IMG/VR virus record: IMGVR_UViG_3300046534_001341
Location: 12,846-76,845 of that record
From: a virus
Length of the DNA stretch: 64,000 bases
Direction: 5' to 3' (one strand)
Shown: positions 26,242 through 54,780 of the stretch, one piece after another
How positions within the stretch are numbered: position 1 is the first letter of the stretch
Layout: each line of letters opens with the position of its first letter
Position numbers and translations under genes: made by a program
Notes under the pieces: generated by a model
The model's database searches: none
Seen by the model: only the letters and a program-made list of their open reading frames with translations
Told to the model about the DNA's origin: nothing

Positions 26242-26511
26242 TTACACAGTACACCTCATCAACAATGCTTTCAACCTCAAATCTTTGCCATCCACGAACT
26301 TAACCTTCTGCGGGTTATCCCCCAAAAATTTGTATATTAGATCACTCACGAAAGTACACCCCACCTTTTCATGACCCAACTCAGCACGAATAAGGTAGTG
26401 GGGTAACTCAACTTGTTCCTGACTACGCATCATCTGCTTCATAAGCTCAACCGTGTAATACCTGTCAGGCTTACTCCCCTCATAAACGAATCTTACATAA
26501 TCATCACTCAT
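26242..26511 (-). CDS. Small protein with LKxLL motif
   Basis: ends KDLRLKALLMRCTV. Confidence 0.6.
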   Translation of the reverse strand: MSDDYVRFVYEGSKPDRYYTVELMKQMMRSQEQVELPHYLIRAELGHEKVGCTFVSDLIYKFLGDNPQKVKFVDGKDLRLKALLMRCTV

Positions 26512-26918
26512 GCCACCACCGCCTTCATAACCGCGGTACCGTAATCCGCTGCCCAATCAATATTCGTAATAGGCTCAGGCTTCGGCCCAACAAGCAAAGC
26601 TCTCAACTTAATAACCTTATCTTCCTCATACCTAACCGCAGTCACAACGTCACTATCAACAAGGTTATTGGCCCAAGTCCTACCACGTTGACTCTCAGGC
26701 AAAACAACAATCATAGGTACCGACTCACCATGTGCCGCCCAAATAGCATTAGCAACACCTGAACCATTAAGCTTAACAACGACATATCTCTCCACACCAT
26801 CTGGGTGTAAGAACATAATAGTGCCACGAGGTTGAATCATAATAATCATCCGCCAAGGAGAAGGGACGACCATCATACACCTACAACTAAGATTCGCCAT
26901 AGACAGTATTCGCTCCAC
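26508..26918 (-). CDS. Small protein with LRxLL motif (start uncertain)
   Basis: KVIKLRALL; ATGA overlap with next gene. Confidence 0.55.
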   Translation of the reverse strand: MERILSMANLSCRCMMVVPSPWRMIIMIQPRGTIMFLHPDGVERYVVVKLNGSGVANAIWAAHGESVPMIVVLPESQRGRTWANNLVDSDVVTAVRYEEDKVIKLRALLVGPKPEPITNIDWAADYGTAVMKAVVA

Positions 26919-27052
26919 ATAATTTTTTAGAAAAACTATTTTGAGATTTGTGATAATTGGGTATGAGTTCAGTACTGATGGAACGGGAACCGTAAATCGG
27001 AAGTACCCCCCCTACTTCAATCCTAATACCTATCGCCTACCCACCCTCGTCA

Positions 27053-27074
27053 TCCACCTAACGGTGGAGTAAGG
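27053..27074 (+). promoter_or_regulatory. Hairpin promoter 1 (putative virion RNAP early promoter)
   Basis: TCCACC-TAAC-GGTGGA then GTAAGG. Confidence 0.75.
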
Positions 27075-27154
27075 ATGATACGTAGCACTAGCTCATCCAG
27101 CGTAGCTGGCACGTGGAGACCAGCAACTTAATTCAATCATTGGAGCATCACATC

Positions 27155-27367
27155 ATGTGGGCAGCAATAGCACAAGTATGGGCATTCATCGGATCACTAG
27201 CATCAGCAGCTAACAACGCAGCTACAGCTATCGAGAAATGCACCTTGGTCGCAGACCAAGCAGCAGACAACTTCCTAGCCGAAGAGTCAGCTAAACAAGC
27301 AGAACGCAAGATCATCCTTGCATCACGCTTAGCAGCCATTCAAGCAGAGCACGAAGCAGTAGCCTAG
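27155..27367 (+). CDS. First early gene (Ala-rich helical protein)
   Basis: GGAG RBS; first ORF after hairpin promoter 1. Confidence 0.7.
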   Translation: MWAAIAQVWAFIGSLASAANNAATAIEKCTLVADQAADNFLAEESAKQAERKIILASRLAAIQAEHEAVA

Positions 27368-27537
27368 TAGCAGCCTCCTCAGGGAGGCCTTACTACTTAT
27401 ACACACCAACACACTACACACCCTCAAAGATAGCTCCTATGAAAGGAGAGAGGCTCAGGATTGGTTATATCACGGTATATCTACCGAATAGGCCTTCCTG
27501 ACAAGTCAGGCTAAACCGATACATACCCGATATGCTC

Positions 27538-27557
27538 CCACTAACGTGGTAGAAGGG
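27538..27557 (+). promoter_or_regulatory. Hairpin promoter 2
   Basis: CCAC-TAAC-GTGG-TAGAAGGG. Confidence 0.75.
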
Positions 27558-27590
27558 TAATCTCATACATCTAACTCAAGGTAAATACTT

Positions 27591-27905
27591 ATGCTAAGTA
27601 GCACACATGTAATCCCTTACATAGACACACTTTTAGGTATGTACTGTGAGTACAAACAGAACAAGTACATAGTAGTAAACGATTCTATTAGTGGTCTTGT
27701 TAAGATCACGAGTGGAACAGTACAACTACATGTAAAAGTATCTAACGTGGTCTTCCTCAAACTTCCTCAAGCACCAATTGTCAGCCATAAAGGACTGTCA
27801 TACATAAGGACTGTCAAAGGACACATCTTCAGTTTAGCAACAGGCAGACTTATGAAGTGGGGGGTTAACAACGGAGACCGCAAAAACATACTGTCTGCGG
27901 AGTAA
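27591..27905 (+). CDS. Hypothetical early protein
   Basis: 104-aa ORF between hairpin promoters 2 and 3. Confidence 0.6.
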   Translation: MLSSTHVIPYIDTLLGMYCEYKQNKYIVVNDSISGLVKITSGTVQLHVKVSNVVFLKLPQAPIVSHKGLSYIRTVKGHIFSLATGRLMKWGVNNGDRKNILSAE

Positions 27906-27919
27906 ACACATACCTCATA

Positions 27920-27940
27920 ACCACTAACGTGGTAGTGAGG
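27920..27940 (+). promoter_or_regulatory. Hairpin promoter 3
   Basis: ACCAC-TAAC-GTGGT-AGTGAGG. Confidence 0.75.
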
Positions 27941-27967
27941 TAATCACACAAGTCTAGGAGAAGTCTC

Positions 27968-28405
27968 ATGAAGTATTGGGCAGGCACTACAATCACATCA
28001 ATGACAGGCAGCAACATCTTCGTCTTCGGGTCTAATCCTGAAGGCAGACATGGAATGGGTGCAGCTAAAGCAGCAATGGCCTTTGGTGCTAAGTATGGTA
28101 AGGGTCGTGGTCGTCAAGGCAACACCTACGCACTACCAACAAAGAACCTGAAGGCTGGGTTCTATGAACGGGCATCAGGCATCACCTATGAGAATGCTGG
28201 TAAGCGCAGCATTACTCTTGAGCAGATCAAAGACAACATCATTGAGTTGTACAAAGATGCTCATATGAACCCCACACTTACTTACTTCGTTGTCTACCAA
28301 ACCAACAGTAATAACCTCAATGGGTATTCACCTAATGAGATCATCGAGCAGTTCACCTCATTGGATATGCCGGACAATATACGCATACACAACAGCTTTC
28401 GATAG
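27968..28405 (+). CDS. A1S_2505-family / macrodomain-like phage protein
   Basis: IFVFGSNPEGRHGMGAAKAA...GNTYALPTK. Confidence 0.65.
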   Translation: MKYWAGTTITSMTGSNIFVFGSNPEGRHGMGAAKAAMAFGAKYGKGRGRQGNTYALPTKNLKAGFYERASGITYENAGKRSITLEQIKDNIIELYKDAHMNPTLTYFVVYQTNSNNLNGYSPNEIIEQFTSLDMPDNIRIHNSFR

Positions 28406-28423
28406 GCTAACGCCTTAGTTAGG
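28404..28423 (+). promoter_or_regulatory. Hairpin promoter 4
   Basis: AGGC-TAAC-GCCT-TAGTTAGG. Confidence 0.75.
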
Positions 28424-28781
28424 TATCAATAGAACTATTGGAGAAGTCTATGCCAGCTCAAGAACTACTAGCACAAGCCTCATTAGGTGAGTCGTACCCA
28501 AGCCATGAATACTCATGTGCTATGTACATTGCACCAATCAACCTCGATGGGCTCAACAACATCGAGATACATGCACCAACCCAAGAAGAAGCAGAAGCTA
28601 TTCGCTCTCTTGTGTTTGAGGCAATCCAACACATTCACTCTTTAGGAGAGTCGCATGGTAACTAAACCTATGATCCAAGGCTTTCTCATAGCCCTCACAG
28701 TCGTTGTACTTAGCACAGTAGCCATTAGGCTACTTTGTATGTACGCAGTCTCAATCGCCGCTTAAATCCAAGGAGAACGCT

Positions 28782-28955
28782 ATGGATGTCATGCCTAAAC
28801 CCGCAGGACACGGTGAGTGTAATAACTCGACCAAATATTGCACTACATGTGGTGCCTGTAACCCACCTAGAACACCTTGTCGTAGTTGTGGTGGACGCAC
28901 ACAAGTAAGTAACCCAACTCAAGTAGGTTATCCAGATAACTACAAGACCTTTTAA
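28782..28955 (+). CDS. Small Cys-rich (zinc ribbon) protein, not in ORF track
   Basis: AAGGAG RBS; 57 aa with CTTC...CRSCGG. Confidence 0.6.
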   Translation: MDVMPKPAGHGECNNSTKYCTTCGACNPPRTPCRSCGGRTQVSNPTQVGYPDNYKTF

Positions 28956-29507: not shown

Positions 29508-29570
29508 CGTTTACACACCTTTACACACCTCGCGTGTTTACTGCACATGCGTAGCCAGTCCGAAAAAAAG

Positions 29571-31217: not shown

Positions 31218-32012
31218 ATGAAAATGTCCCAAGCAAAGAATGTACAAGTATCTGGTACCGTCCCACATAACGTAGTTGAGCGTGATCAACAGCTAAGCAC
31301 TCAGATTGATGAAACCGTCAAGATGAGTAAGTACAAGATCAAGCGCACGTTGGAAGCTGCACGAGTTATTGCACAGGATAACTACGAAGCCAAACAGGAA
31401 GCGTGGGTTCTTGCTTGTAAACCAAGAAAGGTAATAACCGATCGTGTTATGGCAGCAGCCAAAGAATATGCGCTTACTGCCTTGATGCCTATGCTTAACC
31501 TATTGGTTGACTACTGCGAATCCGGTGAATCAGGTACATTCTTTGATGATAACCGTGACGAAGAAGTACCTCTGGAAACCATTGCCAACAAGATGGTATA
31601 CATAGAGCACTCATACGGCATGCCTTCAGCAAATGAATCACAAAGCATCTGGGTGTGGTACTACGTGAACGTATTCGCACATGTCTCAAGCAATGCAGGC
31701 AACCTTGGTGATTACGAGGATATCCTCATGACACCTAAACATAAATACGTGACCATACCTCTGACTCCCGAAGAAACTGCGATCATCGCGCTAGGTGACA
31801 ACTTGTCTAGTGAGAAGCACCTATTCAACCTTGAGATCAACGAGATCGACACCAAGCTGAAGAACCTTGACAACATCACTGAAGACATTGAATTCGCATT
31901 GCTACAAAGCAAGGCTAAGTCTGAAGGTAATACTCAGGTGACCGACGTGTCAGATCAAATCACTAAAGCCATACTGGCCGGTGAAAACCCTAGTGTAATG
32001 CTACTTAAATAA
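31218..32012 (+). CDS. Hypothetical protein
   Basis: 264-aa ORF, coiled-coil C-terminus. Confidence 0.7.
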   Translation: MKMSQAKNVQVSGTVPHNVVERDQQLSTQIDETVKMSKYKIKRTLEAARVIAQDNYEAKQEAWVLACKPRKVITDRVMAAAKEYALTALMPMLNLLVDYCESGESGTFFDDNRDEEVPLETIANKMVYIEHSYGMPSANESQSIWVWYYVNVFAHVSSNAGNLGDYEDILMTPKHKYVTIPLTPEETAIIALGDNLSSEKHLFNLEINEIDTKLKNLDNITEDIEFALLQSKAKSEGNTQVTDVSDQITKAILAGENPSVMLLK

Positions 32013-32408: not shown

Positions 32409-33164
32409 ATGCCTGATTCAAAGATAGCTCATAACTTCGTTCGTGGTATTACATACAATTGTGTTAAGTACGATGCCACGTATGCCCAGTACCTAAACCG
32501 CATTGGTGAGTTGTACTCAGGTCTAGCCATAAATGAAACCACCTACAAAGAACTAAAACTAAAGAGATTTCTTGGAGTTATGCCATGTCGAGGTCAGTAG
32601 CTGAAAGCGCCCATAGGCGTTGTGTCTCCTATCAAGGGTACGAACAAGCAGTCGATCGTAAGAACTCCCGATGGGATAGAGACACCATCGACGACACCCT
32701 ATCAATGGAAGAGTTCATTCAGGTGGGTAAAGAAATCCGCTTAAAACAACTACTTACGAGGCACCAAAATGGTATCTAAGCTTGTATTCCATGGGTAATG
32801 GTTGTCACACAGCTAAGAAGATAGAGCTGCAAGGTAGGACTGATTACATCCGTGCTGGGTATAAATACTCCACTTACCTACGCATGATCACCTTACGTAA
32901 TATCGGGCGCCATCCTCCTCAAATAATCACACCTATAACTGAAGAGGACTACAACCAGCAGCTCAAAGAGCACGCACTCAAGGAACTGATCTCATGCAAC
33001 GTGACCCAGTAAATGTAAGCCTGTGGCGGTCGTACGCTGATTTCAGGCACTCGTACTACACGTACACCAAAGCCCTCAGTTCTCATTGCACACCAGTTTC
33101 TGAAGAAGTGTACAATCAACGACTCAAAGAAAACAAACTCAAATCACTTTTAATAGGTAAATAA
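32409..33164 (+). repeat. Tandem array of four small genes (32409-32600, 32585-32779, 32782-33012, 32994-33164) ending in LKxLL-type motif
   Basis: Y..Y...E..Y/F...E..LK.LL pattern; overlapping stop/start codons. Confidence 0.7.
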
Positions 33165-33165
33165 C

Positions 33166-35474
33166 TTGAAACAAATATGGATATCACAAGATATTGTTAA
33201 TAGTACTATCACAGCAGGTATCGAAAGCCGTAAGGGTAAGATCGTCAGGGAGAAGGTGTTCCCTGACACCACCCCAAAACAGATAGTCGATGAATGGGCC
33301 AACAAGGAAATCGACATGATGGAGTTACTAATGCTGGAAAACCAAAGTGACACCTGACCCAACTGAGTTCTGGAGGGATATTACATTGAAATCAGCAGAA
33401 GGATACACCTGGGGATGGGAGAAGCAGCGTAGAAACTACGAGGCCACCATCCACTTCGATGGCTTTCAAGTCATAACCAAGAACTTCCCTATAGGTACTG
33501 AGCCAGATGTAATGGCTGCATGGGCCAAAGGGGAGATCCAAGTACGTAAACTCAAAGACCTTATCGCGCCTCCGGCACGTTCCAACCCGTAATTTAACCT
33601 AAATAACTGAGTAACAAATGATCCAAATTAATGAAGTATTCTCATGTGAACGCGACAAATACCAATGGTTGCTTCACCAAAAGAAACCTAAGGGTAAACA
33701 CCCAATCACAGGTGAGTTATCCACAAAAGAAAGCACCTCTGTCACATACCACTCAAACCCTGAGCAGATCATGAATGTGGTGATAAATCGCAGCTTAGGT
33801 AAATGTGAGTCACTTGTAGAGATGCGTGACATGCTCGTAGAGAGCCGTGAGATGGTCTCTAAGGCATGTGCGGCTATAAGTAAAGCCAATACATAGGTGA
33901 GGTATAAATATGGCCAGATACTGGGTTAAATTCAAACGTATCAAGAAGACTAATCGAGTGATGGCAAGCTTGGTTATGCCCACTAATGCAGGGCCAAAAG
34001 TCATGGCCCAGAAAAGCTTCCATGCTTACCAAACCTCTTATGGGACTATTGACCCTAACGTCCAGAAATGGGCAAGTCCCTTAGTGAACATGTATCGGCT
34101 GCTATCTCCACATGGGTGAGCTAAGTGAGATCTACCCTAGGGTACACAGAGCAATTGCAGCACCTTGGGAACCGAAGTACACGAGAGGGTTCGCTTGGGT
34201 AATACCTCCTCACACCAATCTTAGTGAGGTGAAAGTAATCATCCGAGTCAACTCAAAACAACAACGAGAAGAGACATTCAACGCTACAGACATAAAAGCT
34301 ATAGCGAAGTGGATTAACTCACAGACCAAAATCTTAAGGTTAGTCATGCCGGGGGTGTCTAGTGACAGGAGATAACACACAACCTGATAAGATAGTTGGG
34401 CGGATAAGATTACATACCCAACCAATTAATGGATTCTACTGGTCTATGTTCCACGAGCACCCAGATGGTGTGTACGTAATGGCTTCTTACTCAGACCCAA
34501 TTGTAGTTGTAATACAGCTTTACGACAATACTAAGACATTCCCTGCCTCTACACCATGTAGTGACATTGAGGGTTGGGTACTAAAAGAAACCAAGAAGAT
34601 AAACCTGAAGAATTTACTTTTTACTTGTACCAAAACCAATTAATTATAAACCCAAAGGTGGCTACGGCAACCGAAACATAAAGGTATAAACCATGAATAA
34701 ATTAGCATTAGTAATAACCATTGCGGCTATGGTTGGATGCGCATCTGCACCACGTCAATTGCCTGTATTGGTAGATGGTAACAACTATCTAGCTATGGGC
34801 ACCGACTGCTCGTATGGCATGATGAGCCAAAATGTACCTAATCAGCTTGACTGCTACAACGAAGACAAAAAGTACACAGGCAATCGTAAGCCTATGACAG
34901 CCAAAGAGCTTAAGGACTTCTGGGCAATACGAGACCAGAACATCACAGACCGTCAGGTTGATCGATTGAAAACACAGCTACGTAATGGCCGAGGACGTTA
35001 ATGCTAGAGATTACGCAGGAAATTAATTACTACTGTAAAGATGTTAATGGGTACTCATGGGGGGTGACTCAGGAACACAACCGAGCCAGCCCCATCAAGG
35101 TTGAGATTCATACCAAGCCCAGTATAAAAAAGACATTCATCTCCAGCACCCCTAGAAATAGGATCGTAGATTGGATCACCCAAGAGACCGCTAAGCTCAA
35201 GCTAAAAGCCTTGATAGGCCCTAAGGCCAAAGTAGAGTTGGGAAACCCTTGGGAGGGTTTAGTGAAACTTTCAGGGCAGATGAATCAGGTTAAGACTTGC
35301 GGGAGAAGAGTAGGAGTCATCATCTTTGATAGTATAGATAACTACTACGAATCCAACGCCACCCAGTACGTATCCAGCACCAACATACCTGAGTCCAACC
35401 AAGCCGCCGCCTTTGATAAACAAACCGGTAAAAACAAATCCAAAACTAAATACAACAGCCCATACGGGCCATAG
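33166..35474 (+). repeat. Dispersed paralog family (33166, 33347, 34112, 34362, 35001) with F...T...W...E...LK.L(L/I) pattern
   Basis: e.g. VFPDTTPKQIVDEWANKE, NFPIGTEPDVMAAWAKGE, TFPASTPCSDIEGWVLKE, TFISSTPRNRIVDWITQE. Confidence 0.7.
34693..35001 (+). CDS. Lipoprotein
   Basis: MNKLALVITIAAMVGC signal peptide/lipobox. Confidence 0.7.
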   Translation: MNKLALVITIAAMVGCASAPRQLPVLVDGNNYLAMGTDCSYGMMSQNVPNQLDCYNEDKKYTGNRKPMTAKELKDFWAIRDQNITDRQVDRLKTQLRNGRGR

Positions 35475-36097
35475 GAACCACCATGGAACAGTTTATTGTA
35501 GTCATAGTTATAGGGATCTTCTTCTACTACCTAGGATCTAGGGATGGTAAGAAGGATCAGTACAAAAAGGACAAGGCCATGATGGGGGTTATGGAATATG
35601 CCACCATCAAAGCATTTAGGCAAACTAGAGAAAAATGTTTATTGAACGAAATTTTGATTGCAAAGATAGCCTTACTAGAGAAAAACAAAAAAGAAATAGA
35701 TGAAGTCAGTGGTAAATCATCAATTAATACAGGCAAGACCAATGCTGAATAAAAACATACACATAAAAACTGGGATGCTACTCGTAGTAAAGAAAACCTT
35801 CTGGACTACTGCTGCCCACAAGGTTGATACTTTCCACGTGAAGTATCAAATACCTAAAGGTACCATCCTTGAAATACGTTACCCGTATGAGTGGCACTTC
35901 CGCTTTGGAGACAATTGCTGGGCACAAGTACCAGCAGAAACACTGGTTAAGTGTTGTGAGTTCTTTGGTGTGATCCATGAAGATGTAAGGTTCAATAACA
36001 ATAATAGCCTACCTGAAATCATGGAAGAAAATCTGTACTACCCTGCATCTGAATATAAATTGGTTCGTTCCGAATCTGCAAAATAGTTGTTCTCTTC

Positions 36098-36146: not shown

Positions 36147-37127
36147 ATGGAAATCAAGAACCTAGAACAAATGTGCATTGAAGACCGCTATTCTCGTAGC
36201 AACATCCGTGCTCGTGTCCTTCTGGACATCATGGATAGTGTTGAAACCGATCTTGCTATAGCCTTCGACAAGGCAGCACAGGCCATTCACAACTATGCCT
36301 ACGGAAAAGTATCACAGACTTATTGGTCATCCAAACTGGTGCGTGTACAGCACCTACGTAACCTATTAGATAAAAAAATGACCATCAATGATCTTGTACT
36401 TGAGATCTTAATTATCGTTATGCCTATGAAGACCGCTCAGCCTATACAGGGGCCGTGTGGTCGCTTAGGTGGTATGTTAGGTTACGGGGATATATTCGAT
36501 GGCGTAAAGACGGCTGCGGAGCTACTAGCAGTAGTGTGCTTCTCAGACCTTTACGACATCATTCCAGCTAGGGAAAGCGAGGGCGACAGTATGTCTATAA
36601 TGCCACGTTACTCCCTAGAAAATGAAACCAATCAGTTCATTTCAGACACCAAGTACCTACCTCCTATGATCTGTAAGCCTGAAGTATTGACTCGCAACTT
36701 TCAGAGTGGGTACCTAACCATAGAAGACTCAGTGATCCTGAAGGGTGTGAACCACCATGAAGAGTATGTATCTCTGGATGTGCTCAACATGGCTAATGGT
36801 ACCGCGCTAGCCTTGGACACTAACATCTTACGTATGAAGGAAAAGCCTAATAAGCCGTTCGATTCACTACATAAAGATGGGTCTGTACCAACAGTTAAAG
36901 TGATCTTGGAACGTGAGAAGAACTTTTTGGAACTGAAGGCAGCATCAAAAATTGTGTACAAAGAGTTACTAGATAACGGCAATGAGTTCTTCAACTGCCA
37001 TAAATTCGACTCTCGTTCACGCAAGTACTCTCAGGGGTACCACGTCCACATTCAGGGAAGTGAGTATAAGAAAGCCATTATTAACCTGGCTACGGAGGAA
37101 GTGATCACAGATGGTATTATCTTATGA
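36147..37127 (+). CDS. RNA polymerase II subunit 1 (N4 gp15 family)
   Basis: YLPPMICKP, SGYLT, HKFDSRSRKYSQGYHVHIQG. Confidence 0.9.
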   Translation: MEIKNLEQMCIEDRYSRSNIRARVLLDIMDSVETDLAIAFDKAAQAIHNYAYGKVSQTYWSSKLVRVQHLRNLLDKKMTINDLVLEILIIVMPMKTAQPIQGPCGRLGGMLGYGDIFDGVKTAAELLAVVCFSDLYDIIPARESEGDSMSIMPRYSLENETNQFISDTKYLPPMICKPEVLTRNFQSGYLTIEDSVILKGVNHHEEYVSLDVLNMANGTALALDTNILRMKEKPNKPFDSLHKDGSVPTVKVILEREKNFLELKAASKIVYKELLDNGNEFFNCHKFDSRSRKYSQGYHVHIQGSEYKKAIINLATEEVITDGIIL

Positions 37128-37559
37128 AAATGCCTGACAGACCTTTCGGTACATTCCCCTACGACATCTTCAATGTGATTACAGATCATGAAGGGGAGTT
37201 CGTACAGCACGCCGTGGCCAGACACTTCACCATGTCCCTGAGTAATGCCCAGCAATGGGTTGATTACCATGAATATTCAATTAAGCGACTAAAGCTTAGA
37301 AAACTCTTGGAAAGTAAAAATGGAAGAACCAAGGCTACCTAAAGGCATGATCCCACCTGATATCTACAGGATTATTATAGGCCGTATTGACGGTGTTCAT
37401 GCAGTAACGGCTTTGTGTCATTACACAGATCTAAACGAAGAAGAGGCATCAGATTGGTTTGCCTTCTATAAGTGGGCAGCAGCAAATCGTGAAGCCCGAC
37501 TAGAACAAGCACACAAAGAAAACCAACTCAAAATATTACTAAGACTCAAAAGGAAATAG
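37124..37559 (+). repeat. Two paralogous small genes (37124-37342, 37320-37559) between the RNAP II subunits
   Basis: P.DI...I......HAV...H.T..L....A..W pattern; ends LKLRKLL / QLKILL. Confidence 0.7.
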
Positions 37560-37561
37560 CA

Positions 37562-38557
37562 ATGCAAACATTCTCAGGTTTAGATTATACAAAGATCGCC
37601 GTAGCAAATGCCTTCGGCAATGATAAAGATGTCTGGGATGATCGCATTGATTGGGCTGAAAAGTTCCTTGAGAAGCAGTCGGCTCATACGATGCGTAAAG
37701 CAGATGAGCCATTCTTAATGAGGAAGGCTGTGAACGCTTACAACGATGCAGTGGCTGGTAAGGCTACTGGTTACATAATGGGCCTAGATGCCACGTCCTC
37801 AGGGCTTCAGATAATGGCTGCCTTGAGTGGTTGCCTGACTACTGCCCGTAACGTGAATCTTATCAATACCGGTTCAAGAGAAGATATATACCTGAAAGTA
37901 ACCAAGCGCATGCAGGAACTGTGCCCTCACCTAAACATCACACGTAACCTTCTAAAGCACCCAATCATGACGTTCTTCTACAACTCTAAGGCGCAGCCTG
38001 AAGGTGTATTTGGAAAGGACACCCCTGAGCTAGATGCTTTCTACGAAGTACTGCATGAACTCCTACCGGGAGCCATGGAAGTAATGCGCATGATTCAGGC
38101 ATGTTGGAATCCTGAAGCCACTGAACATAAGTGGACCGCACCTGATGGACACGTATCTATACCTTTGGTTATGGACTACGTAGACACCAAGATCGAAGTA
38201 GAAGAGTTAGGTAAGGCTACATTCACCCACCGCGCCAAGATCGTTATGTCTGATGAGCGTGGCTTATCATTACCGGCAAATGTGAACCAATCGATTGATG
38301 CTTACATCGTTCGTATGATGTATCGCATGGCTCATAGTCAGGGTTGGGAAATCCTAACAGTACATGACGCATTCTTCTGCACACCGAATAATGTGAATCG
38401 TATGCGTATGAACTACAACAAGATCTTATCTAAGATCGCCTCATCCAACATGCTTTGTGACATCTTGAAAGAGATCACAGGCAATAAGGGAACTATCAAG
38501 AAGATGTCTACTACACTTCCTGGCTTGATCCTTAAAGCAAACTATTCACTTAGCTAG
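37562..38557 (+). CDS. RNA polymerase II subunit 2 (N4 gp16 family)
   Basis: GLDATSSGLQI (motif A), RNLLKHPIMTFFY (motif B), TVHDAF (motif C). Confidence 0.92.
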   Translation: MQTFSGLDYTKIAVANAFGNDKDVWDDRIDWAEKFLEKQSAHTMRKADEPFLMRKAVNAYNDAVAGKATGYIMGLDATSSGLQIMAALSGCLTTARNVNLINTGSREDIYLKVTKRMQELCPHLNITRNLLKHPIMTFFYNSKAQPEGVFGKDTPELDAFYEVLHELLPGAMEVMRMIQACWNPEATEHKWTAPDGHVSIPLVMDYVDTKIEVEELGKATFTHRAKIVMSDERGLSLPANVNQSIDAYIVRMMYRMAHSQGWEILTVHDAFFCTPNNVNRMRMNYNKILSKIASSNMLCDILKEITGNKGTIKKMSTTLPGLILKANYSLS

Positions 38558-39549: not shown

Positions 39550-39793
39550 GCCAAAGGAGGCAATATGAACGAATTAGATCTTATGAATTTACTGTGGGTA
39601 GTGTGGTTTATTTTATGCACCATCCTATCCTTGGGCTTAGCTATTTATACTAAGTGCGGGGGTGACGCACTGTTATTGATTTTAATGGCTGGTTTCTTTG
39701 GGCCGTTTATATGGGTGCTAATAGGTTTGGCCACTCTCATATTATTGATGGCGTTTTTAGGGGAGCAACTCCTTAAATTCCTAAGGAGGGGGC

Positions 39794-42032
39794 ATGACCA
39801 ATAAGGCAGTATTAGACGAAGATGAGTGCATCGTGTGCACGCACAATAAACATGCAAAAGGCATAATATGGAGGTTGAGGGTGAACAACATTATGACAGA
39901 TAAGCCTGTTGAAGGTGTAAGAAGAGAATTCGTATATTGCAGTTATTGTGATGCGGGCAAAGAACTAGCCAAACAGGAGCTACTACGTGAGCTACTTATC
40001 AAAAAATAACCCTAGAAAGATCTGCCCAGTATGCAAGGATACAGGTAAGACCTGGAAAAACCTACCTAGCGGTGTGCTAGATAAAAGTCCTAGAGGGGTT
40101 ACATACTGCTGGTGCCCTGTAGGTGAGAAAATGGAAAAAAAGAAAGAACTCCGTGACCTGCTTATGGGAGTTAAATCATGACAGAAGGGTGTAAGGCGTG
40201 TGGTTTTGGGTTGCTACCGAAAGAGTATAAAAAATTTGAAGAGCTTCAGCACGAGCAGGGGTCGACCATCCCAATGCAGTATTGTTTTTGTGCTAATGGA
40301 CAGAGACTAGCCAAAGAGGGTCGGCTACGTAATCTACTAACAGGAGAAAAATCGAATCAATATACGGTACCTGACGACGTAGATTACAAAGATGCCGAGG
40401 ATAAGGTAAGGGATTGGTTGGACTTAGGGGTTATATAGTGGGTTACTTAGGTAGGAAATATAACTATAAAGAGCAGTGCAGGACATGCGGGGGCAAGGGT
40501 AGATACCGTGAACGTAGAGCCCCTGATCCTAATGACCCCCATAGGGGTCGTAACCCAACTCAACTATGCCATTGCCCTGCAGGTGAACAAAAGGCTCGTG
40601 ATGAGGCTTGGGATCGGATACAGAATGATAGTTAGACATGTTGAATGCAGGGCCTGTACTAAAGATGCTTGGGACTTACCCAGATGTGTCATAAACCGTA
40701 CAGCACCTGACGGGTCGTTTAGACGAGCCAGTTCTTTTTGCCTGTGTGCGGTAGGTAGGCACCTACTTCAGGTTTACTCACTCAAACAATTATTGAAAGG
40801 AAAGAGGATATGAATGACCTAATACTGTGGGCAGTAGTGACGGCAGTGATGTCAGCGCCTGTAATACTACTCATGAAAATATATGAGTGGAAAGCTTGCG
40901 TGCTCTTTGGGCACCACCCCAGTGAGTGGACGTGGGCGCAGGATGGGTATAACTCCCCTGTGCCTAATGAAGAACGGATCTTGTTCAGCCAGATGCACGG
41001 GCATTGTCGCCACTGCAAAGTGGAGGTACGTACGTTTAGTGAGCAGCATAGACTTACAGCCTATTACACCAAAGAGCAGTGTGCCCAGTACGGGTATGAA
41101 TTCGTTGATAAGAAAGAATACGAACTCAAGAAACTGCTTCTAGGTAAACGTAACGACGATGACCTATTCACTAGAAGTAACCAGATAAATTCAGGCATGC
41201 CTATGTTGGGCACAACAGGAAGGGTGATCAAAGTCGGCTTCCCTAGGAAGCTTATATGAAACAAACAACCAAAAAGTGTCCCAAGTGCGGCAACACTCAT
41301 CTGATCTTACTACAATCCCAGAACCTCAAGGTCTGTATGAACCATAAACCTAAAGCAGTCCTAATTCCTTGGTTCTTGGATAAAGGACAAAGGCCTTTAC
41401 TATGAGAAAAGCTGTCACGTTTAACCCACACTGGGTGGGTGAGGAGCCTGCTTGGGACATCCGTTTATTAAATGGGGATCACCACCGCAGCGTTACTAAA
41501 ACTACTATTTTAGCTGTAAGCACTAGAAGACATGGCACCAGTGTATTGGAGTGCGATGTTCAAGATTACGGCACACACCACTTAAAAATAGCAGCGCAGA
41601 AATGAGCAAGTGCGGTATGTGCTCTCATGATGCTGTACATACCGCGACAGGTATATTACCTCCCCTGCATGATTGGGGTACATTTACCTTTTGTCGTTGG
41701 TGTGTGAAGGGCGCCCAACTCAAAAAAGAACAGGCACTTAGGCAACTACTTAGAGGAGACCCTCCATGTGCAAAACCAGAGATATAAGTAAACCTGAAGA
41801 ATGCGTAATGTGCTCAGAGGGTTGTGACCCAGCCGCCACAGGCAGAAGACCCCACAAAAAGTTCAGTACTGAATTCTGCGTTTGGTGTGATCTAGGTATA
41901 CAGTTGGAAAAGGAACATAACCTCAAGAAATTACTTCTCAATGATAAGAAACCCCGAACAATTGCCGATCTTATACGCAAACAAATGAATGCAAAAGGGG
42001 CGGCCTCCGGCCGCTTTGTTCCCAAAAATTAA
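39794..42032 (+). repeat. Array of small zinc-finger genes (CxxC...Cx(x)CxxG) mostly ending in L[KR]xLL
   Basis: ORFs at 39794, 39987, 40178, ~40438, 40625, 41602, 41766 share the Cys pattern; 40810 and 41256-41405 are also Cys-rich. Confidence 0.8.
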
Positions 42033-42053: not shown

Positions 42054-43103
42054 ATGCAGCAGATTACAGCAGTACAAGCACCAGAGTTATTGATGGATGT
42101 AATGAAGGCCGGATTGGTTCCGATGATAGTATCATCCCCCGGCATTGGTAAGTCGTCAATCGCCAAGCAAATTGCAGAAGACCGTAACCTGAAGGTTATT
42201 GATTTACGTTTATCTCAGTGTGATCCAAGTGATCTACTTGGTTTTCCCTCAATCAATAAAGACAAAACCAAAGCTGGTTATGTACCAATGGATACTTTCC
42301 CTATTAAGGGTGATCCAATACCATCACGTACGGTTAATGGTGTAGTCAAACCTTACGCAGGCTGGTTACTTTTCTTAGATGAAATGAACTCAGCAGCAAA
42401 GTCAGTACAAGCAGCGGCTTACAAAATAGTCTTGGATCGACAAGTTGGCCTACATGATCTGCATAAAAGCGTAGCTGTAATGGCAGCCGGTAACCTATCT
42501 ACGGATAAGGCGATCGTGACTAAACTTGGTACGGCCATGCAATCACGTATGGTTCACTTTCACCTACGTGAAGACTTCAAGTCTTGGATGGCATGGGCGG
42601 CGACTTCAGGTATTGATTACCGCATCACTTCTTTCTTGAACTTCAAGCCAGAAGCGTTATTCAATTTCTCACCTGACCACAATGACTGCACTTTCGCATG
42701 TCCTCGTACATGGGAATTTGTGTCTAAGATCGTGATTAATTGGAAAGAGATTGGTTCTGATAAATCACCTTTAATCGGGGGCACAATCGGTGAAGGTATG
42801 GGTCGTGAATTCCTAGCCTTCTGTCAGGTGTTTGGGGAACTCCCAACAATCAGTGAGATAGTTAACAACCCTATGGGTACTAAGCTGTCTGACGAGCCTA
42901 CAGTACGTTATGCCTTAACAGGTATGATTGGGTCACACATCACCCCAAATAACTCAGATGCGTTAATGAAATTTGTTGATCGTATGCCTGTGGAATTTCA
43001 AATCATCACGCTTCAATCAGCACTATTACGTGACCCTAGCCTATTGTCTCAAGGCTCTGCATTCGATGCTTGGGTTACCAAACACGCTTCACGTTTAATG
43101 TAA
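42054..43103 (+). CDS. AAA+ ATPase (N4 gp24 family, MoxR-like)
   Basis: SSPGIGKS Walker A, LLFLDEMN Walker B, AAGN, CPRTWE. Confidence 0.9.
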   Translation: MQQITAVQAPELLMDVMKAGLVPMIVSSPGIGKSSIAKQIAEDRNLKVIDLRLSQCDPSDLLGFPSINKDKTKAGYVPMDTFPIKGDPIPSRTVNGVVKPYAGWLLFLDEMNSAAKSVQAAAYKIVLDRQVGLHDLHKSVAVMAAGNLSTDKAIVTKLGTAMQSRMVHFHLREDFKSWMAWAATSGIDYRITSFLNFKPEALFNFSPDHNDCTFACPRTWEFVSKIVINWKEIGSDKSPLIGGTIGEGMGREFLAFCQVFGELPTISEIVNNPMGTKLSDEPTVRYALTGMIGSHITPNNSDALMKFVDRMPVEFQIITLQSALLRDPSLLSQGSAFDAWVTKHASRLM

Positions 43104-43107: not shown

Positions 43108-43764
43108 ATGAATATGACGACTCTCGCTGGATTCTTAAAAGAAGTAGAGAACCATAAATTAACAGTGGTTCGGGATGACGGTTTGAATCGTCATATTCGT
43201 TTAGCAGAACCAGGCACAGGTAACTGTCAATTTGATTTAATTACTTGGCCTGGTCATCTGTGTGTCACTGGGGATTGTGGAACTTATGTATTCCAAAGGA
43301 CCAATGACATGTTTGAGTTCTTCCGCCAGAACCAGAAAGGCGAGAAGGAACTGCGCATCAATAGTGGATACTGGTCTGAGAAACTACTCAGCACATGTAA
43401 TCACGGTGGTGTTAAAAAATTCTGTACAGATTTATTCAAGAAACAGTTGGATGACTACATAGAAAACCACTGGGAATTTGAAGATGACGACGACGAAGAG
43501 CTTAAGGCTGTCGAAGTTAAAGCAAAAGTTTTAGCAGAAGTAAATGAAGAAATTGTCACCATACTTGATATGGGTAAAGACATGGCCTTGAACGCAGCCA
43601 TGACTTTCAAGTCCGAATATGGGCACACTTTTGAAGATTTCTGGGATTACGAATTCGACAAGTATACCCACCACTTTTTGTGGAACCTATACTCCATTGC
43701 ATGGGGTATTCAACAATATGACCTCAGCAAGGAATCAGAATGTCCTACTCCAAGCAAGACTTAG
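43108..43764 (+). CDS. Conserved phage hypothetical protein
   Basis: 218 aa, FDLITWPGHLCVTGDCGTYVF, YWSEKL. Confidence 0.75.
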   Translation: MNMTTLAGFLKEVENHKLTVVRDDGLNRHIRLAEPGTGNCQFDLITWPGHLCVTGDCGTYVFQRTNDMFEFFRQNQKGEKELRINSGYWSEKLLSTCNHGGVKKFCTDLFKKQLDDYIENHWEFEDDDDEELKAVEVKAKVLAEVNEEIVTILDMGKDMALNAAMTFKSEYGHTFEDFWDYEFDKYTHHFLWNLYSIAWGIQQYDLSKESECPTPSKT

Positions 43765-44909
43765 AAACAGCTTTTGATAAAGCAAAAATTGGTTTGATGA
43801 CTAAGCACAACAGCATATTCATCACGACCATCCTATTCTCCCTGAAGCATACGTGGGACGAATCCTGCAAGACTGCTGGGACGAATGGGGTCGATTTGGT
43901 AATAGCGCCCACATGGTTCATGAGTATGACTGCAGGAGCCCGTATGGGCCTACTAGCGCATGAAGCATGGCACGTTGCTTTCAACCACATGACCCGTGGT
44001 GACAGCTACGAGCATAAGGAATACAACATTGCTGCTGATCATGTAATTAATGTGATGCTGAAGGATGCTAGTTACGAGCTCCCTGAGGGGGGTTACGGAG
44101 ACTTTAAATACCGTGGTTGGAGTACCGATGAAGTGTATAAAGATCTGCAATCTAACCCAAAGCCGCCGCCACCTAAAGGTGGTGAAGGTTCAGGGGGCTG
44201 CGGTCAGGACATTAAGTACCCAAGTGATGAAAAAGACAAAGATGGTAAGGGTAATACCCAAAAACAAAAAGACAACCTTCAGCGCAAGATAGAAGACACC
44301 CTGATCAAAGCCACCACCCAGTCGAAAATCATGGGTGACGCTGCTGGTACGATCCCAGGAGACATCTCCCGAATGCTGGATGAACTTCTTAATCCAAAAT
44401 TGGATTGGAAGACTTTGTTGAGCAATTATATGAATGCCTTCGCTAAAGAAGACTATTCGTATCAGCGCCCCAACAAACGATTTATGCCTGATTTCTTTTT
44501 ACCTGGTATGCACAGTGAAAGTCTCGGTGAGATTTGTTTTGCATGTGACGCCAGTGGTTCTGTATCGCAGGCAGATTTTACTGCGTACTTGAATGAAATT
44601 AATTACGTGAAGGAAGAGTTGAATCCCGTCCTCACTACCATTATCGATTTCGATACTCGCATTAATAATGTTCACTCTCTCGGACAAGATGATTCGATTG
44701 AAGGTATTAAATTTACAGGTGGTGGCGGTACAAACCTCACTCCAGTATTTGATTACTACAGTGACCGCAAGCCTGTTGTGCTAGTGGTCTTTTCGGATTT
44801 GTACTGTTCAATGATTAAGAATGATCCAGGCTACCCAGTTTTATGGGTGTGCGTGAACAACCCACGGGGCCAAGTAAATTTCGGCACCATAATTCATATT
44901 GACCTTTAG
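43740..44909 (+). CDS. Metallopeptidase-like + vWA domain protein (N4 gp25 family)
   Basis: HEAWH (HExxH), DASGSVS MIDAS, GGGGTN, FSDLY. Confidence 0.88.
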   Translation: MSYSKQDLETAFDKAKIGLMTKHNSIFITTILFSLKHTWDESCKTAGTNGVDLVIAPTWFMSMTAGARMGLLAHEAWHVAFNHMTRGDSYEHKEYNIAADHVINVMLKDASYELPEGGYGDFKYRGWSTDEVYKDLQSNPKPPPPKGGEGSGGCGQDIKYPSDEKDKDGKGNTQKQKDNLQRKIEDTLIKATTQSKIMGDAAGTIPGDISRMLDELLNPKLDWKTLLSNYMNAFAKEDYSYQRPNKRFMPDFFLPGMHSESLGEICFACDASGSVSQADFTAYLNEINYVKEELNPVLTTIIDFDTRINNVHSLGQDDSIEGIKFTGGGGTNLTPVFDYYSDRKPVVLVVFSDLYCSMIKNDPGYPVLWVCVNNPRGQVNFGTIIHIDL

Positions 44910-44920: not shown

Positions 44921-45904
44921 ATGTCTACAGTATTCGTAGAATCCGTACAGGCAAGTATCTGTGCAGTGACAGGTAAGCGTATCGACACATTAGTTTGTGA
45001 GTATCCGCGTGCCATTCACGCCCAGTTACTTACTCACGGTGTGTTTAGTAAAAACAGTTCATCATCTCGTGCTGTACCAATTGCTTCGGCAATTGCTCAG
45101 ATACGAAAAAGCCCAGCTAAGCCGATATTTACGGCTAAGCAAACAGGTATGCAAGGCGAGCGCATTACAGATACTGGGCGTTTAACTAGTATCAATATAG
45201 CGCACAATTTATGTATGGAATTCGCAATAACCACAGCAAATTGGATGGATGCCAATGGCGTCCATAAACAAAATGCTGCCCGTTACCTTGAAACATTCCA
45301 AAATATTCGCATCGTGTTGACTTCAACAGAATGGGAAAACTGGGATTGGTTACGTATCGATGCCGCTGCTCAACCTGAAATTCAGGAATTGGCTATTGCC
45401 ATGAAAGCTGCACGCGATGCTGCTGAACCAATGAAGTTGGATGCTGGTGAATACCACGTTCCTTTCGTTGAGCGTAATCGTAATGTTGCTGGCAAGCTGG
45501 AGTACTTCACCAAAGAAGAAGTAAAAGTAGGGGGTGCTGTATTAGCGGATATCTTCAACCAAGTCGATCTGAAGACTGCCATTGATATTTCGATGTCATG
45601 CTGTGCACAGGTTTCTTACCGTAAGCTTGATAACTCAGCAGAAAAAGCTGAGGACATTATCCCCAAATTATTTGGTGGTAAGAAAATTCATGCAAGCCCT
45701 GCGGAACACCAAGCAACCCCAATCGATGCCAAGTTCCACGGTAAAGCACCAAAATTACCCTTACAGGTAATCATGGCCAGCCTTCCGGCTGGTGTAAATG
45801 CAATAGGTATTGATCTGCAATTCCGTTCGGGTAACTTCACGAACTGGATACAGCAGCGTCAAATTATCGAAGGTCATGACGCGGCGTTAATGCCGAAGGT
45901 TTAA
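44921..45904 (+). CDS. thyX: FAD-dependent thymidylate synthase
   Basis: YPRAIHAQLLTHGVFSKNSSSSRAVP, HKQNAARYLE, AQPEI, HASPAEHQA. Confidence 0.85.
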   Translation: MSTVFVESVQASICAVTGKRIDTLVCEYPRAIHAQLLTHGVFSKNSSSSRAVPIASAIAQIRKSPAKPIFTAKQTGMQGERITDTGRLTSINIAHNLCMEFAITTANWMDANGVHKQNAARYLETFQNIRIVLTSTEWENWDWLRIDAAAQPEIQELAIAMKAARDAAEPMKLDAGEYHVPFVERNRNVAGKLEYFTKEEVKVGGAVLADIFNQVDLKTAIDISMSCCAQVSYRKLDNSAEKAEDIIPKLFGGKKIHASPAEHQATPIDAKFHGKAPKLPLQVIMASLPAGVNAIGIDLQFRSGNFTNWIQQRQIIEGHDAALMPKV

Positions 45905-46124: not shown

Positions 46125-46715
46125 GTGAATATGATTGAAGGTTACAAACAAATGGTAACTGATTTGGCTAAACCAGGTCAGGCCATTGTTGATTCAATGT
46201 CAGCAGAACGAGCACATTGCTTACACATGGCCGTAGGTCTTGTAGGTGAAGTAGCAGGTGAGCTACCAGTAAGTACTTCTATGGAAAACCTGATTGAAGA
46301 ATTAGGTGATGTGGAGTTTTACTTTGAAGGTTTGATGCAGGCATATACTATCCCTGCTTTGTTAGATGTGCCTGAAGGCATTAACCCAGATCTTAGTAAA
46401 TTACCCTCTATACTAGCCTTAGTTGTTATTGCTGGTGATATCATGGATGTGGTTAAAAAGCACGTCATCTATGGTAAGGAAGTGGACATGTTGAAGTTGG
46501 TAAATAACATGTCAGCTTTCCGTCAAATCCTCAACGCTATTGAGGGCGGTATGGGTGAGGACATCTCTCAGGGGATTATACTTGAAGCCAACATGCAGAA
46601 GTTACTGAAAGGTGAAACTGCACGCTACAAATCTGGTTCGTACTCCGATGATCAGGCAACTGATCGCGCGGACAAAGCCAGTAATGTAGTAAACATAAAC
46701 AAAAACAAAGACTAA
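46125..46715 (+). CDS. MazG-like NTP pyrophosphohydrolase
   Basis: LHMAVGLVGEVAGE, EELGDVEFY, ANMQKL...RY..GSYSD. Confidence 0.8.
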   Translation: MNMIEGYKQMVTDLAKPGQAIVDSMSAERAHCLHMAVGLVGEVAGELPVSTSMENLIEELGDVEFYFEGLMQAYTIPALLDVPEGINPDLSKLPSILALVVIAGDIMDVVKKHVIYGKEVDMLKLVNNMSAFRQILNAIEGGMGEDISQGIILEANMQKLLKGETARYKSGSYSDDQATDRADKASNVVNINKNKD

Positions 46716-52461: not shown

Positions 52462-52893
52462 AGTAACGGTGAGTTTCGTACGTAGTGATTCTGGTTTGTG
52501 TCGGGATTACTACAAAAATAAGTTGGGGCTCTACTGCCTACAAAAAGACGTGAGCCCCAGTGACCTTTGGTACCTCTGCAGTAAAGACGGGGAACCACAA
52601 ACCCCTCTGTACTACACTCAGTTTTTTACTGAGGACGGTACTCAGATCACGGAGAGGAAAGATGACACCACTTAGTTTTAAACCACCAACCCCCCTTGAA
52701 CCACCTTATCTGGTTTTGGAGGGGGGTAGGAAGCAGCCTCTATATGGGGATGTAACTTTCCGTGCGGCGGTGCTTAGAGAGGGGCTTACCTACTCTTCTC
52801 GTATGGAGGATGAGTTCGGCAGCCCTGACCCTATTATTCCGTACCTTGTTTTGAAGACAGGTACAACACTAAACTTATTGTGGGACCCATACC

Positions 52894-53172
52894 ATGGAAG
52901 CAGTTAAGTATTCTGAGTTGAACCAATTTGCTAAACGGGTAACTCGTGATTCGTATGTACGCCATCAAGAAGGTCGGTGCTGTCACTGCCAAGTGCTGCT
53001 GACATTACCACCACCCGCTAATATTTTAAAACTCAAGCTGAACATGCGTCTATTCCCTCCGGGGTTTCTTCGCTGGCCAGTCCACTTACATCATTGCCAT
53101 AAGACTGATCTAACGATCGGCGCAGTCCATGCTTATTGCAATGGAGTGCTGTGGCAGTATCACGGAGAATAG
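52894..53172 (+). CDS. Endonuclease VII/HNH-like protein (N4 gp22-like)
   Basis: QEGRCCHC...VHLHHCHKT...GAVHAYCN. Confidence 0.7.
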   Translation: MEAVKYSELNQFAKRVTRDSYVRHQEGRCCHCQVLLTLPPPANILKLKLNMRLFPPGFLRWPVHLHHCHKTDLTIGAVHAYCNGVLWQYHGE

Positions 53173-54462
53173 TATGAACCTAATACAAATAGTATCGTGG
53201 ACAATTGTGCGGGCCTGTAGAGGCAACCCAATCATTACTACCCTGCTCGTATTTTTTATCTTCATCATGATTAACATGCTGGAGGCCTTACTTGAGGTGC
53301 TGATCTTTGGTGGGCGTTTCGAGCACTGGGGTGATGTAGTTATTTGGGTAACTCAGTTTACCTACACAGGGTATCTCATAAACCTGTGCTCTACTTTTAA
53401 TAGGGATAACCCGTGACTGTGCTTTGTTCTATTTGTAGTAACCCAATCCTATTGGTTCCAAGTGCTGAAGAGCGTGCAGCGAAGTCTGGGAAACCTGCTT
53501 CGTATTATCTTAATCTTTTCACTGAACATGCTAGCTGTACTGTGACTAAACGTCATCAGGAAAGTGTAGCCCTGATGCGGAGGATTCGTAATGCCAACAA
53601 GTAACCCTGGATGTAGTAACGGCAATTGTGTCGTCAACGATCACCCGAAAGGAAAGGTCGTCACTCACGGTTGGTGTCAATGTCTTCGTTCATTACCTGA
53701 CGAAACTCGTTTACGTGTTGAGGCTAAGTTGCACCAACTACGTACTGCTGAGGCTCTTATTAAATCAATGGAAGACATGCCAGGTTTAGCTCTGATGCTG
53801 GAGACTTATTGGGAACACAGAAGCTCCAAGTTATGACTAAGCAGAACACCAAAGAAAAAGCACTAGTTAATCTAGTGAAACAGATTCCTAATTGTAAATG
53901 CGGGGAGTTGGGGGAGGAAACGCACCCTTGCCCTTTCGCAAAGGAAGTTCACAAAGACTGGGCTACACTTTGTAATTGCTGTGCTGTTTGTAGGCACAAT
54001 TGTTTTAGGGAGATTTAGGGTGGTTCTATGTAATTGGTAATAAAATAGATAATTGGAAATTAAAAAAATGAATCAAGTTGAATTATTAAGACACGTAGCA
54101 AATAATTTAGAAGCGGGTAGAGAGTCTGGTGATGGGCTTCTATATAATGGGGGGACATCAGGATCAATTGATGCGAAGGATATTCGGCTAGATACTCATA
54201 AGCTTTACACACTAACACCACGAACGCATGAAGTTAATAATTTTACTGTGCCAGCGCCGCTGACAGAGGCGCCAGCAAATGGAACTCACTATTACATAGC
54301 ATCGACAGAGCAAGATTACTTCTTTTTACGTTCATCTTGGGAAGGTCTTTCTTTAGATTATAAATACTTACATCGCGGCCTAATTCACTTAACAGAAGAA
54401 GCGGCACAACAAAACGCACTAGCATGGCTTGGTCGCGATCCAGAAAAAGGAATTGAGGGTGT

Positions 54463-54780
54463 ATGACTCAATCAACAGCATGGCAGCACATGGAGGCCCA
54501 TTATATTAATAAGGTCTCTCGTGCTGAATTCCAAGTAAGTGAAAGAGATAAGACCATTAAAGAGCTGAAGCTTAAACTACTTCTAGCAGGTGTTGTGGGG
54601 GACGGCCCTAAAATACCTACAGACAGTGCTGTTGCTCACGAGTTAGAGCGGACGGAAACTAGTAAGTTCGCAGGTCTTCAAATAAAATCCACAGCCATTA
54701 GCCAAGTGTGTGGTTTGTTGCTTCAAATGGGCTACAGCGACACTGTGATGGTTTTTCAGAAAATCAATCGTAATAATTAG
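54463..54780 (+). CDS. Hypothetical protein with LKxLL motif
   Basis: IKELKLKLLLAG. Confidence 0.6.
   Translation: MTQSTAWQHMEAHYINKVSRAEFQVSERDKTIKELKLKLLLAGVVGDGPKIPTDSAVAHELERTETSKFAGLQIKSTAISQVCGLLLQMGYSDTVMVFQKINRNN

Follow-up and report, generated by a model that had tools for sequence, protein, structure and literature searches.

Motif-carrying genes in the window

The window analyzed here is a stretch of 64,000 nucleotides, corresponding to bases 12846-76845 of the 76,845-bp IMG/VR virus record IMGVR_UViG_3300046534_001341. Eighteen of its small proteins share the pattern L-[K/R]-x-L-[L/I], which sequence comparison identifies as a real, statistically robust and lineage-restricted helix motif on phage microproteins, and from which we infer, tentatively, a role in docking. 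The record encodes a virion RNA polymerase of 3262 amino acids (aa) and a split T7-like RNA polymerase II (RNAP II; phrog_2166, phrog_2051), followed downstream by genes for a gp24-like ATPase and then a gp25-like protein, a gene content by which the phage, which is uncultured, is classified as N4-like (Schitoviridae). The nearest named relatives are distant, the ATPase being 46% identical to that of Vibrio phages VBP47 and VBP32, and 45% identical to its counterpart in Pseudoalteromonas phage pYD6-A. Near-identical DNA occurs in two ice-metagenome runs, and traces are found in seawater metagenomes; the contigs from the metagenome runs hardly differ from the window, and vary too little for a test of selection.

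The original prediction listed 18 small open reading frames (ORFs) carrying the motif and three weaker variants, and took them for a candidate modular adaptor system. All 18 sites are found in the ORFs named, as are the variants in genes 32409 (LKRFL), 33166 (MMELL) and 34112 (LRLVM); for two genes a slightly shifted start is preferred, 32791 in place of 32782 and 37347 in place of 37320. The carriers, and the paralogues lacking an intact motif, are the following (nt, nucleotides).

26242-26511 (-): minus-strand pair, 89 aa; LKALL at aa 80-84 (nt 26260-26274), 5 residues after it
26508-26840 (-): minus-strand pair, 110 aa (122 aa in the database); LRALL at aa 79-83 (nt 26592-26606), then VGPKPEP
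32409-32600 (+): Tyr-rich family, degenerate member, 63 aa; KELKLKRFL, hidden Markov model (HMM) score 4.0
32585-32779 (+): Tyr-rich family, 64 aa; KEIRLKQLL (motif nt 32741-32755)
32791-33012 (+): Tyr-rich family, 73 aa; KEHALKELI (nt 32977-32991); paralogue of 32994 (E 2e-6)
32994-33164 (+): Tyr-rich family, 56 aa; KENKLKSLLIGK (nt 33138-33152)
33166-33357 (+): FTW family, degenerate member, 63 aa; KEIDMMELLML
33347-33592 (+): FTW family, 81 aa; VRKLKDLI (nt 33551-33565)
34112-34375 (+): FTW family, degenerate member, 87 aa; TKILRLVMPG
34362-34643 (+): FTW family, 93 aa; KKINLKNLL (nt 34605-34619)
35001-35474 (+): FTW family, 157 aa; AKLKLKALIGPK (nt 35202-35216), with an 85-residue tail
37124-37342 (+): HAV pair, 72 aa; KRLKLRKLL (nt 37295-37309); between the RNAP II subunit genes
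37347-37559 (+): HAV pair, 70 aa (79 aa from start 37320); KENQLKILL (nt 37527-37541)
39794-40009 (+): zinc-finger family, 71 aa; KQELLRELLIKK (nt 39983-39997)
39987-40181 (+): zinc-finger family, 64 aa; KKKELRDLLMG (nt 40149-40163)
40178-40438 (+): zinc-finger family, 86 aa; KEGRLRNLLTG (nt 40325-40339), with a 32-residue tail
40414-40635 (+): zinc-finger family, member without the motif; its helix reads EAWDRIQNDS
40625-40813 (+): zinc-finger family, 62 aa; VYSLKQLLKGKRI (nt 40781-40795)
40810-41259 (+): hydrophobic N-terminal segment and partial finger, 149 aa; KEYELKKLLLGK (nt 41125-41139), with a 39-residue tail
41602-41787 (+): zinc-finger family, 61 aa; KEQALRQLLRG (nt 41737-41751)
41766-42032 (+): zinc-finger family, 88 aa; KEHNLKKLLLND (nt 41922-41936), with a 31-residue tail
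54463-54780 (+): singleton in the replication-gene region, 105 aa; KELKLKLLLAG at aa 33-43 (nt 54571-54585)

Enrichment and extent of the motif

The curated gene list of the window comprises 110 proteins, 74 shorter than 160 aa and 36 larger. The small proteins yield 19 matches to the regular expression, against 0.86 expected from within-protein shuffles (about 20-fold enrichment), and none of 200 shuffles reaches 19. The reversed motif, which has equal composition and equal helical periodicity, is matched twice, and other permutations 2-5 times, so that the enrichment holds over the background of amphipathic helices. The large proteins yield 3 matches against 1.6 expected. The 19th small-protein match, LKTLI in gene 28971, lacks the flanking features described below, as does a match in one RNAP II subunit, and both look like chance occurrences.

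The motif also emerges when it is not supplied. In a blind search of every four-residue pattern within six positions, run with a reduced alphabet, LK.LL comes out on top, being present in 15 proteins (7.0 on average in shuffles, 11 at most), and KE..LK is next. Residues outside the regular expression are conserved as well: counting from the first Leu of the motif as position 0, Lys is found at -4 in 15 of the 18 members, Glu at -3 in nine and Gly at +6 in eight. Because these flanks were not asked for by the expression, the fuller motif is K-E-x-x-L-[KR]-x-L-[LI]-x-G. Its core corresponds to L-x-x-L-L, 15 members reading L[KR]xLL and the other three L[KR]xLI. Positions 0 and +3 are always Leu in the canonical members, and position +4 admits Leu and Ile but not Val, Phe or Met; an ordinary core position would not usually be so strict in its use of Leu and Ile at a paralogue identity of about 25%.

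With a profile of 17 columns, the 18 members score 7-19 and nothing else exceeds 4.0. When HMMs are built with one family left out, the left-out members score above all 1189 six-frame ORFs in the case of the minus-strand pair, the Tyr family, 54463 and most zinc-finger proteins; 26242 scores 8.6 (background maximum 4.7) and 54463 scores 9.1 (background maximum 4.4). Recovery is weaker for the FTW and HAV families.

Protein-level constraint

That the motif reflects composition, chance or a translated DNA or RNA signal is hardly credible. The proteins are rich in Lys, Glu and Leu, and downstream ribosome-binding sites overlap the stretch that follows the motif, both of which could produce a spurious pattern; yet neither shuffles, nor reversed and permuted controls, nor off-frame ORFs, nor other phages reproduce it, and its synonymous codons are randomised. 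Composition and chance were rejected on the shuffle controls and the blind pattern search. All six Leu codons are used at position 0 as at position +3, so selection acts on the protein and not on the DNA. The basic position is encoded by AAA, AAG, AGA, AGG and CGT, and third-position identity at the Leu codons is 0.28 between members. Off-frame ORFs give no score with the motif profile, and a nucleic-acid signal was rejected on these grounds, matches residing in coding frames only.

The residues following the motif (Gly, Lys, Arg, Glu) coincide with the Shine-Dalgarno sequence of an overlapping downstream gene at 40781-40813, 41737-41787, 40149-40181 and 33138-33164 (example TTGAAAGGAAAGAGGATATGA). 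Gly at +6 is found also where no start codon comes next.

A variant contig from one ice-metagenome run, aligned at 40067-40492, carries nine differences inside the zinc-finger gene 39987-40181, among them a synonymous CTG-to-CTA change in the codon of the Leu at +3 (40160) and a Lys-to-Glu change six residues upstream of position 0.

Head families

BLAST and alignments sort the carriers into a Tyr-rich group, a beta-rich FTW group, the HAV pair, the Cys4 zinc-knuckle group, 40810, the minus-strand pair and the singleton 54463. Profile-profile alignment between families brings together 8-16 columns only, those of the motif, and once the motif is removed no pair of families exceeds 2% hhalign probability. 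The minus-strand protein 26508 shows weak similarity to the FTW member 34362 (29% over 72 aa, E 0.34) and shares with 35001 a GPK continuation after the motif; by these resemblances it may be a displaced FTW member. Of the claim that at least five unrelated families are involved, the part concerning heads without detectable homology stands (2% or less), but the number is probably four to six, because 26508 may be a relocated FTW protein.

Database matches to the heads are scarce. A PHROG search of ten motif proteins gave no match, and no motif protein scored above the Pfam cut-off among the members scanned. The zinc-finger members 39987 and 41766 have no Pfam match at E of 1 or less except zf-Di19 (E 0.056), itself below cut-off. 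A DnaJ-type CxxCxGxG domain was considered for this family and discarded, each protein containing one CxxC and one Cx(1-2)CxxG and no repeated units. The FTW heads (nine members searched in Pfam) yield only matches to three unrelated families, each by a single member (E 0.077-0.16), and no AP2- or integrase-type Pfam family appears among the nine.

Paralogues that have lost the canonical motif keep part of it, hydrophobic residues being retained at 0, +3 and +4 in MMELL, LRLVM and LKRFL, and as W..I in 40414. This would be expected if the motif were an inherited structural element, derived from one ancestral microprotein or from a recombined helix module, and served for packing or stabilisation (a salt bridge between Glu at -3 and Lys at +1, a Leu core, a Gly cap) with no common partner. 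Tandem arrays of tiny genes are typical of duplication, three of the families share a loose layout in which an S/T-P cap and an aromatic residue precede a long helix, and the GPK continuation shared by 26508 and 35001 points the same way. We nevertheless consider common descent for structural ends less likely than docking. Profile similarity is absent outside the motif, the predicted head architectures differ (Cys4 knuckle as opposed to four-stranded sheet), strict Leu at 0 and +3 together with Lys at -4 is unexpected for a generic core across such divergence, and 40414 retains finger and helix without the motif.

Orthologues and distribution among phages

The motif is conserved in orthologues where these were recovered. 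Across nine pairs of orthologues, Leu occupies the three Leu positions of the motif in all 27 cases, three of which are changes from Ile to the consensus Leu, and the basic position is retained in seven of the nine, other aligned residues being 57% identical. The three orthologues of 35001 (51-57% identity) retain LKLKALL or LKLTALL, and the one orthologue of 26508 (P0019, 76% identity) retains LRALL. Among zinc-finger proteins, orthologues were found for 39794 (P0014, LRKLL), 39987 (P0009), 41766 (P0010, LKKLL) and 40178 (P0011, LRNLL; P0013, LTNLL). The profile of this family, run against 1.84 billion representative proteins, collects ten, its own members and a handful of relatives. A word-based search with the Tyr family returned the proteins of the window only.

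A relative's contig of 76,718 bp apparently carries both an FTW and a zinc-finger orthologue, and a contig of 2,224 bp apparently carries a pair of zinc-finger orthologues next to each other; motif arrays thus appear to exist in related phages. A search of viral contigs for related loci with the orthologue P0003 found none, and one with the ATPase found two distant loci only.

The long tail of 35001 contains two blocks conserved in all three orthologues, NIPEANQAAA and, at the extreme C-terminus, GKNKSKxKYxSPYG, a conservation which suggests a second functional element.

Beyond these relatives the motif is not enriched. Five comparison sets from Schitoviridae, namely the complete VBP47 genome, the first 20 kb of N4 and of pYD6-A, and two IMG/VR relatives, give 0-2 matches each, and no pattern rises above shuffles; when pooled, 3 of 197 proteins match, against 19 of 74 in the window (Fisher p = 2e-9). 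A general property of N4-like phages is thus rejected for the regions checked, and by these comparisons the motif is confined to this lineage. Neither 35001 nor 41766 found a match by tblastn in 50,697 phage records, nor did the 10-kb array by megablast. No description of such a motif was found in the literature on LxxLL, N4-like early genes, DUF2201 and short linear motifs in phages. The small-gene arrays of N4 (gp1-gp14 and gp17-gp23), VBP47 and pYD6-A occupy the matching position, around the RNAP II genes and before the gp24-like ATPase, but differ from the arrays described here in having no over-represented motif.

Position of the motif and the gp24-like/gp25-like pair

The distance between the motif and the C-terminus ranges from 3 to 85 residues. 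Twelve of the 18 motifs are followed by 11 residues or fewer, six by tails of 27-85 residues. Immediately downstream of the largest array lie the following genes, given as context.

42054-43103 (+): gp24-like MoxR-type AAA+ ATPase (phrog_1297, E 1e-124; AAA_3 weak)
43740-44909 (+): gp25-like putative metallopeptidase (DUF2201_N; PF13203, 4e-39) with a VWA-like domain (PF09967, 7e-25)

The original prediction singled out this pair as the best local candidate for the hub. The pair does adjoin the zinc-finger array, the ATPase gene coming directly after it, but nothing beyond adjacency speaks for the assignment. The gp24-like ATPase is present in 857 phage records; N4 and VBP47 have homologues of both gp24 and gp25, pYD6-A of the gp24-like ATPase at least, and no motif array is seen in any of the three. 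The expected co-occurrence of motif and pair across relatives therefore fails, N4 and VBP47 having the pair without the array, and co-occurrence does not single out gp24/gp25 because the pair is universal in the family and the motif lineage-confined. The pair may have gained clients in the present lineage alone.

The same facts bear on the notion that the motif is a degron, timing removal by host ClpXP or Lon or by the phage AAA+/metallopeptidase-VWA pair, or a MinD-like amphipathic membrane anchor. The motif is basic and hydrophobic, it lies within 11 residues of the C-terminus in two-thirds of the members, and genes for an AAA+ protein and a putative metallopeptidase-VWA protein follow the largest array. 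A tag of either sort is nonetheless improbable: the motif is not a terminal tag, because six members carry 27-85 residues after it, the tails vary, and gp24/gp25 occur across the family without the motif. Lipid-binding helices, moreover, tolerate any large hydrophobic residue, unlike the three strict-Leu positions found here.

Several known elements were compared with the motif and set aside. Six of the 18 motifs are internal and only three hydrophobic positions are fixed, which does not agree with a MinD/FtsA-type membrane helix. The 3-85 variable residues after the motif do not agree with an ssrA/MuA-type C-terminal degron. The beta-clamp motif (QL[SD]LF or QLxLxL) is no better a match, Gln preceding position 0 in one of 18 members and the L-[KR]-x-L-L register being unfit. 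The SspB XB tail LRVVK (ClpX), the ssrA LAA and the MinD sequence KGFLKRLFGG are short basic-plus-hydrophobic elements near the C-terminus recruiting a common cellular site; the motif differs from them in not being at the extreme terminus, in having six members with long tails, in being predicted helical rather than extended, and in being Leu-specific. LRNLLTG of 40178 recalls the DnaK peptide NRLLLTG, as the motif recalls the SspB tail LRVVK, both of which we take to be extended binders; no kinship is claimed.

Structure models

AlphaFold2 models were built from family alignments for two head types. The FTW protein 34362 is predicted to form four strands followed by a 25-residue helix (residues 66-90), with the motif at 82-86 (predicted local distance difference test, pLDDT, 70). 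The zinc-finger protein 39987 is predicted to form a knuckle region followed by a helix at 44-59, with the motif at 55-59 (pLDDT 65). Both models, although of different head types, thus place the motif in the final two turns of the C-terminal helix. On ideal helix geometry, the residues at 0, +3, +4 and -4 would fall on one helical face, and the hydrophobic residues specific to the FTW family (-13, -9, -6, -2) about 140 degrees away from the face of the three Leu positions.

Such a patch might simply pair with another copy of itself. An exposed Leu patch on the single helix of a protein of 56-90 aa commonly drives dimerisation, and members of the set occur as adjacent pairs and arrays, so that homo- or hetero-oligomers could be envisaged, for example between 26242 and 26508, or 37124 and 37347. 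We regard self-association as rather improbable: the hydrophobic residues suffice for one heptad only, Lys at -4 would be placed in the core if the helices formed a canonical coiled coil, and promiscuous pairing among 18 proteins would be functionally awkward. A complex prediction combining FTW protein 34362, zinc-finger protein 39987 and Zn scored 0.01 against a mark of 0.32, was run without controls, and is evidence neither way.

Structural searches gave no firm relatives for the heads. Foldseek with the FTW model found nothing at E of 0.001 or less in PDB and BFVD. In a wide VIA-align comparison the best match of the FTW model is the N-terminal domain of AcrIF24 (Z 6.6), within the noise range; AP2 (6sy0, Z 4.4) and the integrase arm domain (3jtz, Z 4.2) are both below noise level; the AP2/integrase-arm type has a three-stranded sheet on a C-terminal helix, and the FTW model four strands and a helix. 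The Tyr-rich protein 32994 weakly resembles a HAT/TPR helical hairpin in the ESM Atlas, where 41766 retrieved nothing useful.

Interpretation

The reading we prefer, held tentatively and put somewhat short of an even chance, is that the motif is a docking patch of the LxxLL type, a helix fitting a groove, common to many early and middle small proteins and addressed to one partner. It is preferred because a Leu-strict, charge-framed helix end is found on dissimilar heads, is retained in orthologues, and is lost in a few paralogues that keep the head. K-[E]-x-x-L-[K/R]-x-L-[L/I]-x-(G) would accordingly be an interaction patch selected at the protein level, in which three Leu side chains line one face of the last two helix turns, framed by Lys and Glu. 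The helix would be mounted on several small heads with no detectable relationship (Tyr-rich helical, beta-sheet FTW, HAV, Cys4 zinc knuckle and others), and through it a third of the early and middle microproteins would reach one binding site on a common partner, which would be either a phage protein or a host protein already there when infection starts. We infer each of three things here: that the patch is exposed to solvent, that it docks, and that its partner is single. Doubtful, and to be taken with more reserve, is the extension by which at least four unrelated-looking heads with one docking tag form a plug-in effector repertoire, about a third of the microproteins in this polar-marine lineage converging on one hub, of the host or of the phage.

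Several observations weigh against docking on one partner. No partner was found, for which reason the adaptor system of the original prediction can be spoken of only conditionally. Orthologues were obtained for three families only. The family alignments are shallow (2-12 sequences), and homology between heads could have escaped detection. The hydrophobic residues kept at 0, +3 and +4 by degenerate paralogues would fit structural packing equally well. Part of the signal from Gly at +6 and Lys at +7 may be imposed by the downstream Shine-Dalgarno sequence, and both structure models are only moderately confident.

The closest formal parallels to a docking helix of this kind are eukaryotic. LxxLL and LD motifs (nuclear-receptor boxes, E6AP, paxillin LD) likewise present L-x-x-L-L in a short amphipathic helix with charged neighbours, often with Gly after it, and likewise reside in many unrelated carriers, which present them to one receptor; the E6AP peptide bound by papillomavirus E6 is given as ELTLQELLGEE in PMC5760104. 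Here, in contrast, phage microproteins carry the motif, Lys or Arg invariably fills position +1, and Lys at -4 is conserved; by this comparison the likeness is one of form only, not of homology. The principle that one short element addresses many unrelated cargoes to one machine is familiar from the T4 capsid-targeting sequence and from the MIX and E-block effector markers. Those tags are N-terminal or secretion-related and have known machines, whereas the present motif closes the C-terminal helix of early and middle cytoplasmic proteins. Adaptor networks built on short helical motifs are known from eukaryotic viruses and secreted bacterial effectors; to our knowledge, none has been described for host takeover by a phage.

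No block of unexplained phage genes is larger than the early ORFans, which as a rule give experimenters nothing to start from. Here 18 early and middle ORFans are tied together by a conserved helix of 11 residues; if a common partner were identified, a mode of action would follow at once for one third of the early region. Should docking on a host hub prove true, phages would, like eukaryotic viruses, rely on docking motifs that can be reused, and a search rule for other phages would result. If the motif is only structural, it is a clean example of a helix element outlasting all other similarity in fast-evolving microproteins.

Neighbouring genes

A small plus-strand island, with late genes on one side and the minus-strand motif pair on the other, contains a gene (25245-25751, +) for a 168-aa protein with a Thoeris anti-defence 2-like domain (PF11195, E 7e-21; phrog_872). 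Directly upstream of the Tyr-rich array lies the gene for the largest early protein (31218-32012, +; 264 aa), which has no match in PHROG or Pfam and no homologue in VBP47. The RNAP II subunit genes phrog_2166 and phrog_2051 (36147-38557), adjacent in N4, are split here by two motif microgenes (37124-37559), and the gp24-like and gp25-like genes, neighbours in N4, are separated by an inserted gene for a 216-aa protein (43114-43764, +; phrog_4657).

A trio of nucleotide-metabolism genes encodes an Nmad5 (nucleotide-modification-associated domain 5) protein (54838-55572, +), a thymidylate-synthase-like protein (phrog_85; 44921-45904, +) and a MazG-like pyrophosphatase (46131-46715, +). Their domain assignments hint at modified DNA bases.

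Small membrane-type proteins are interspersed in the arrays (34693-35001, 35483-35752 and 39565-39804, all +). One has a signal peptide and a lipobox-like VGC, and another, of 89 aa, a single hydrophobic segment. The one of 79 aa has 2-3 hydrophobic segments, and its C-terminus, EQLLKFLRRG, is a loose echo of the motif.

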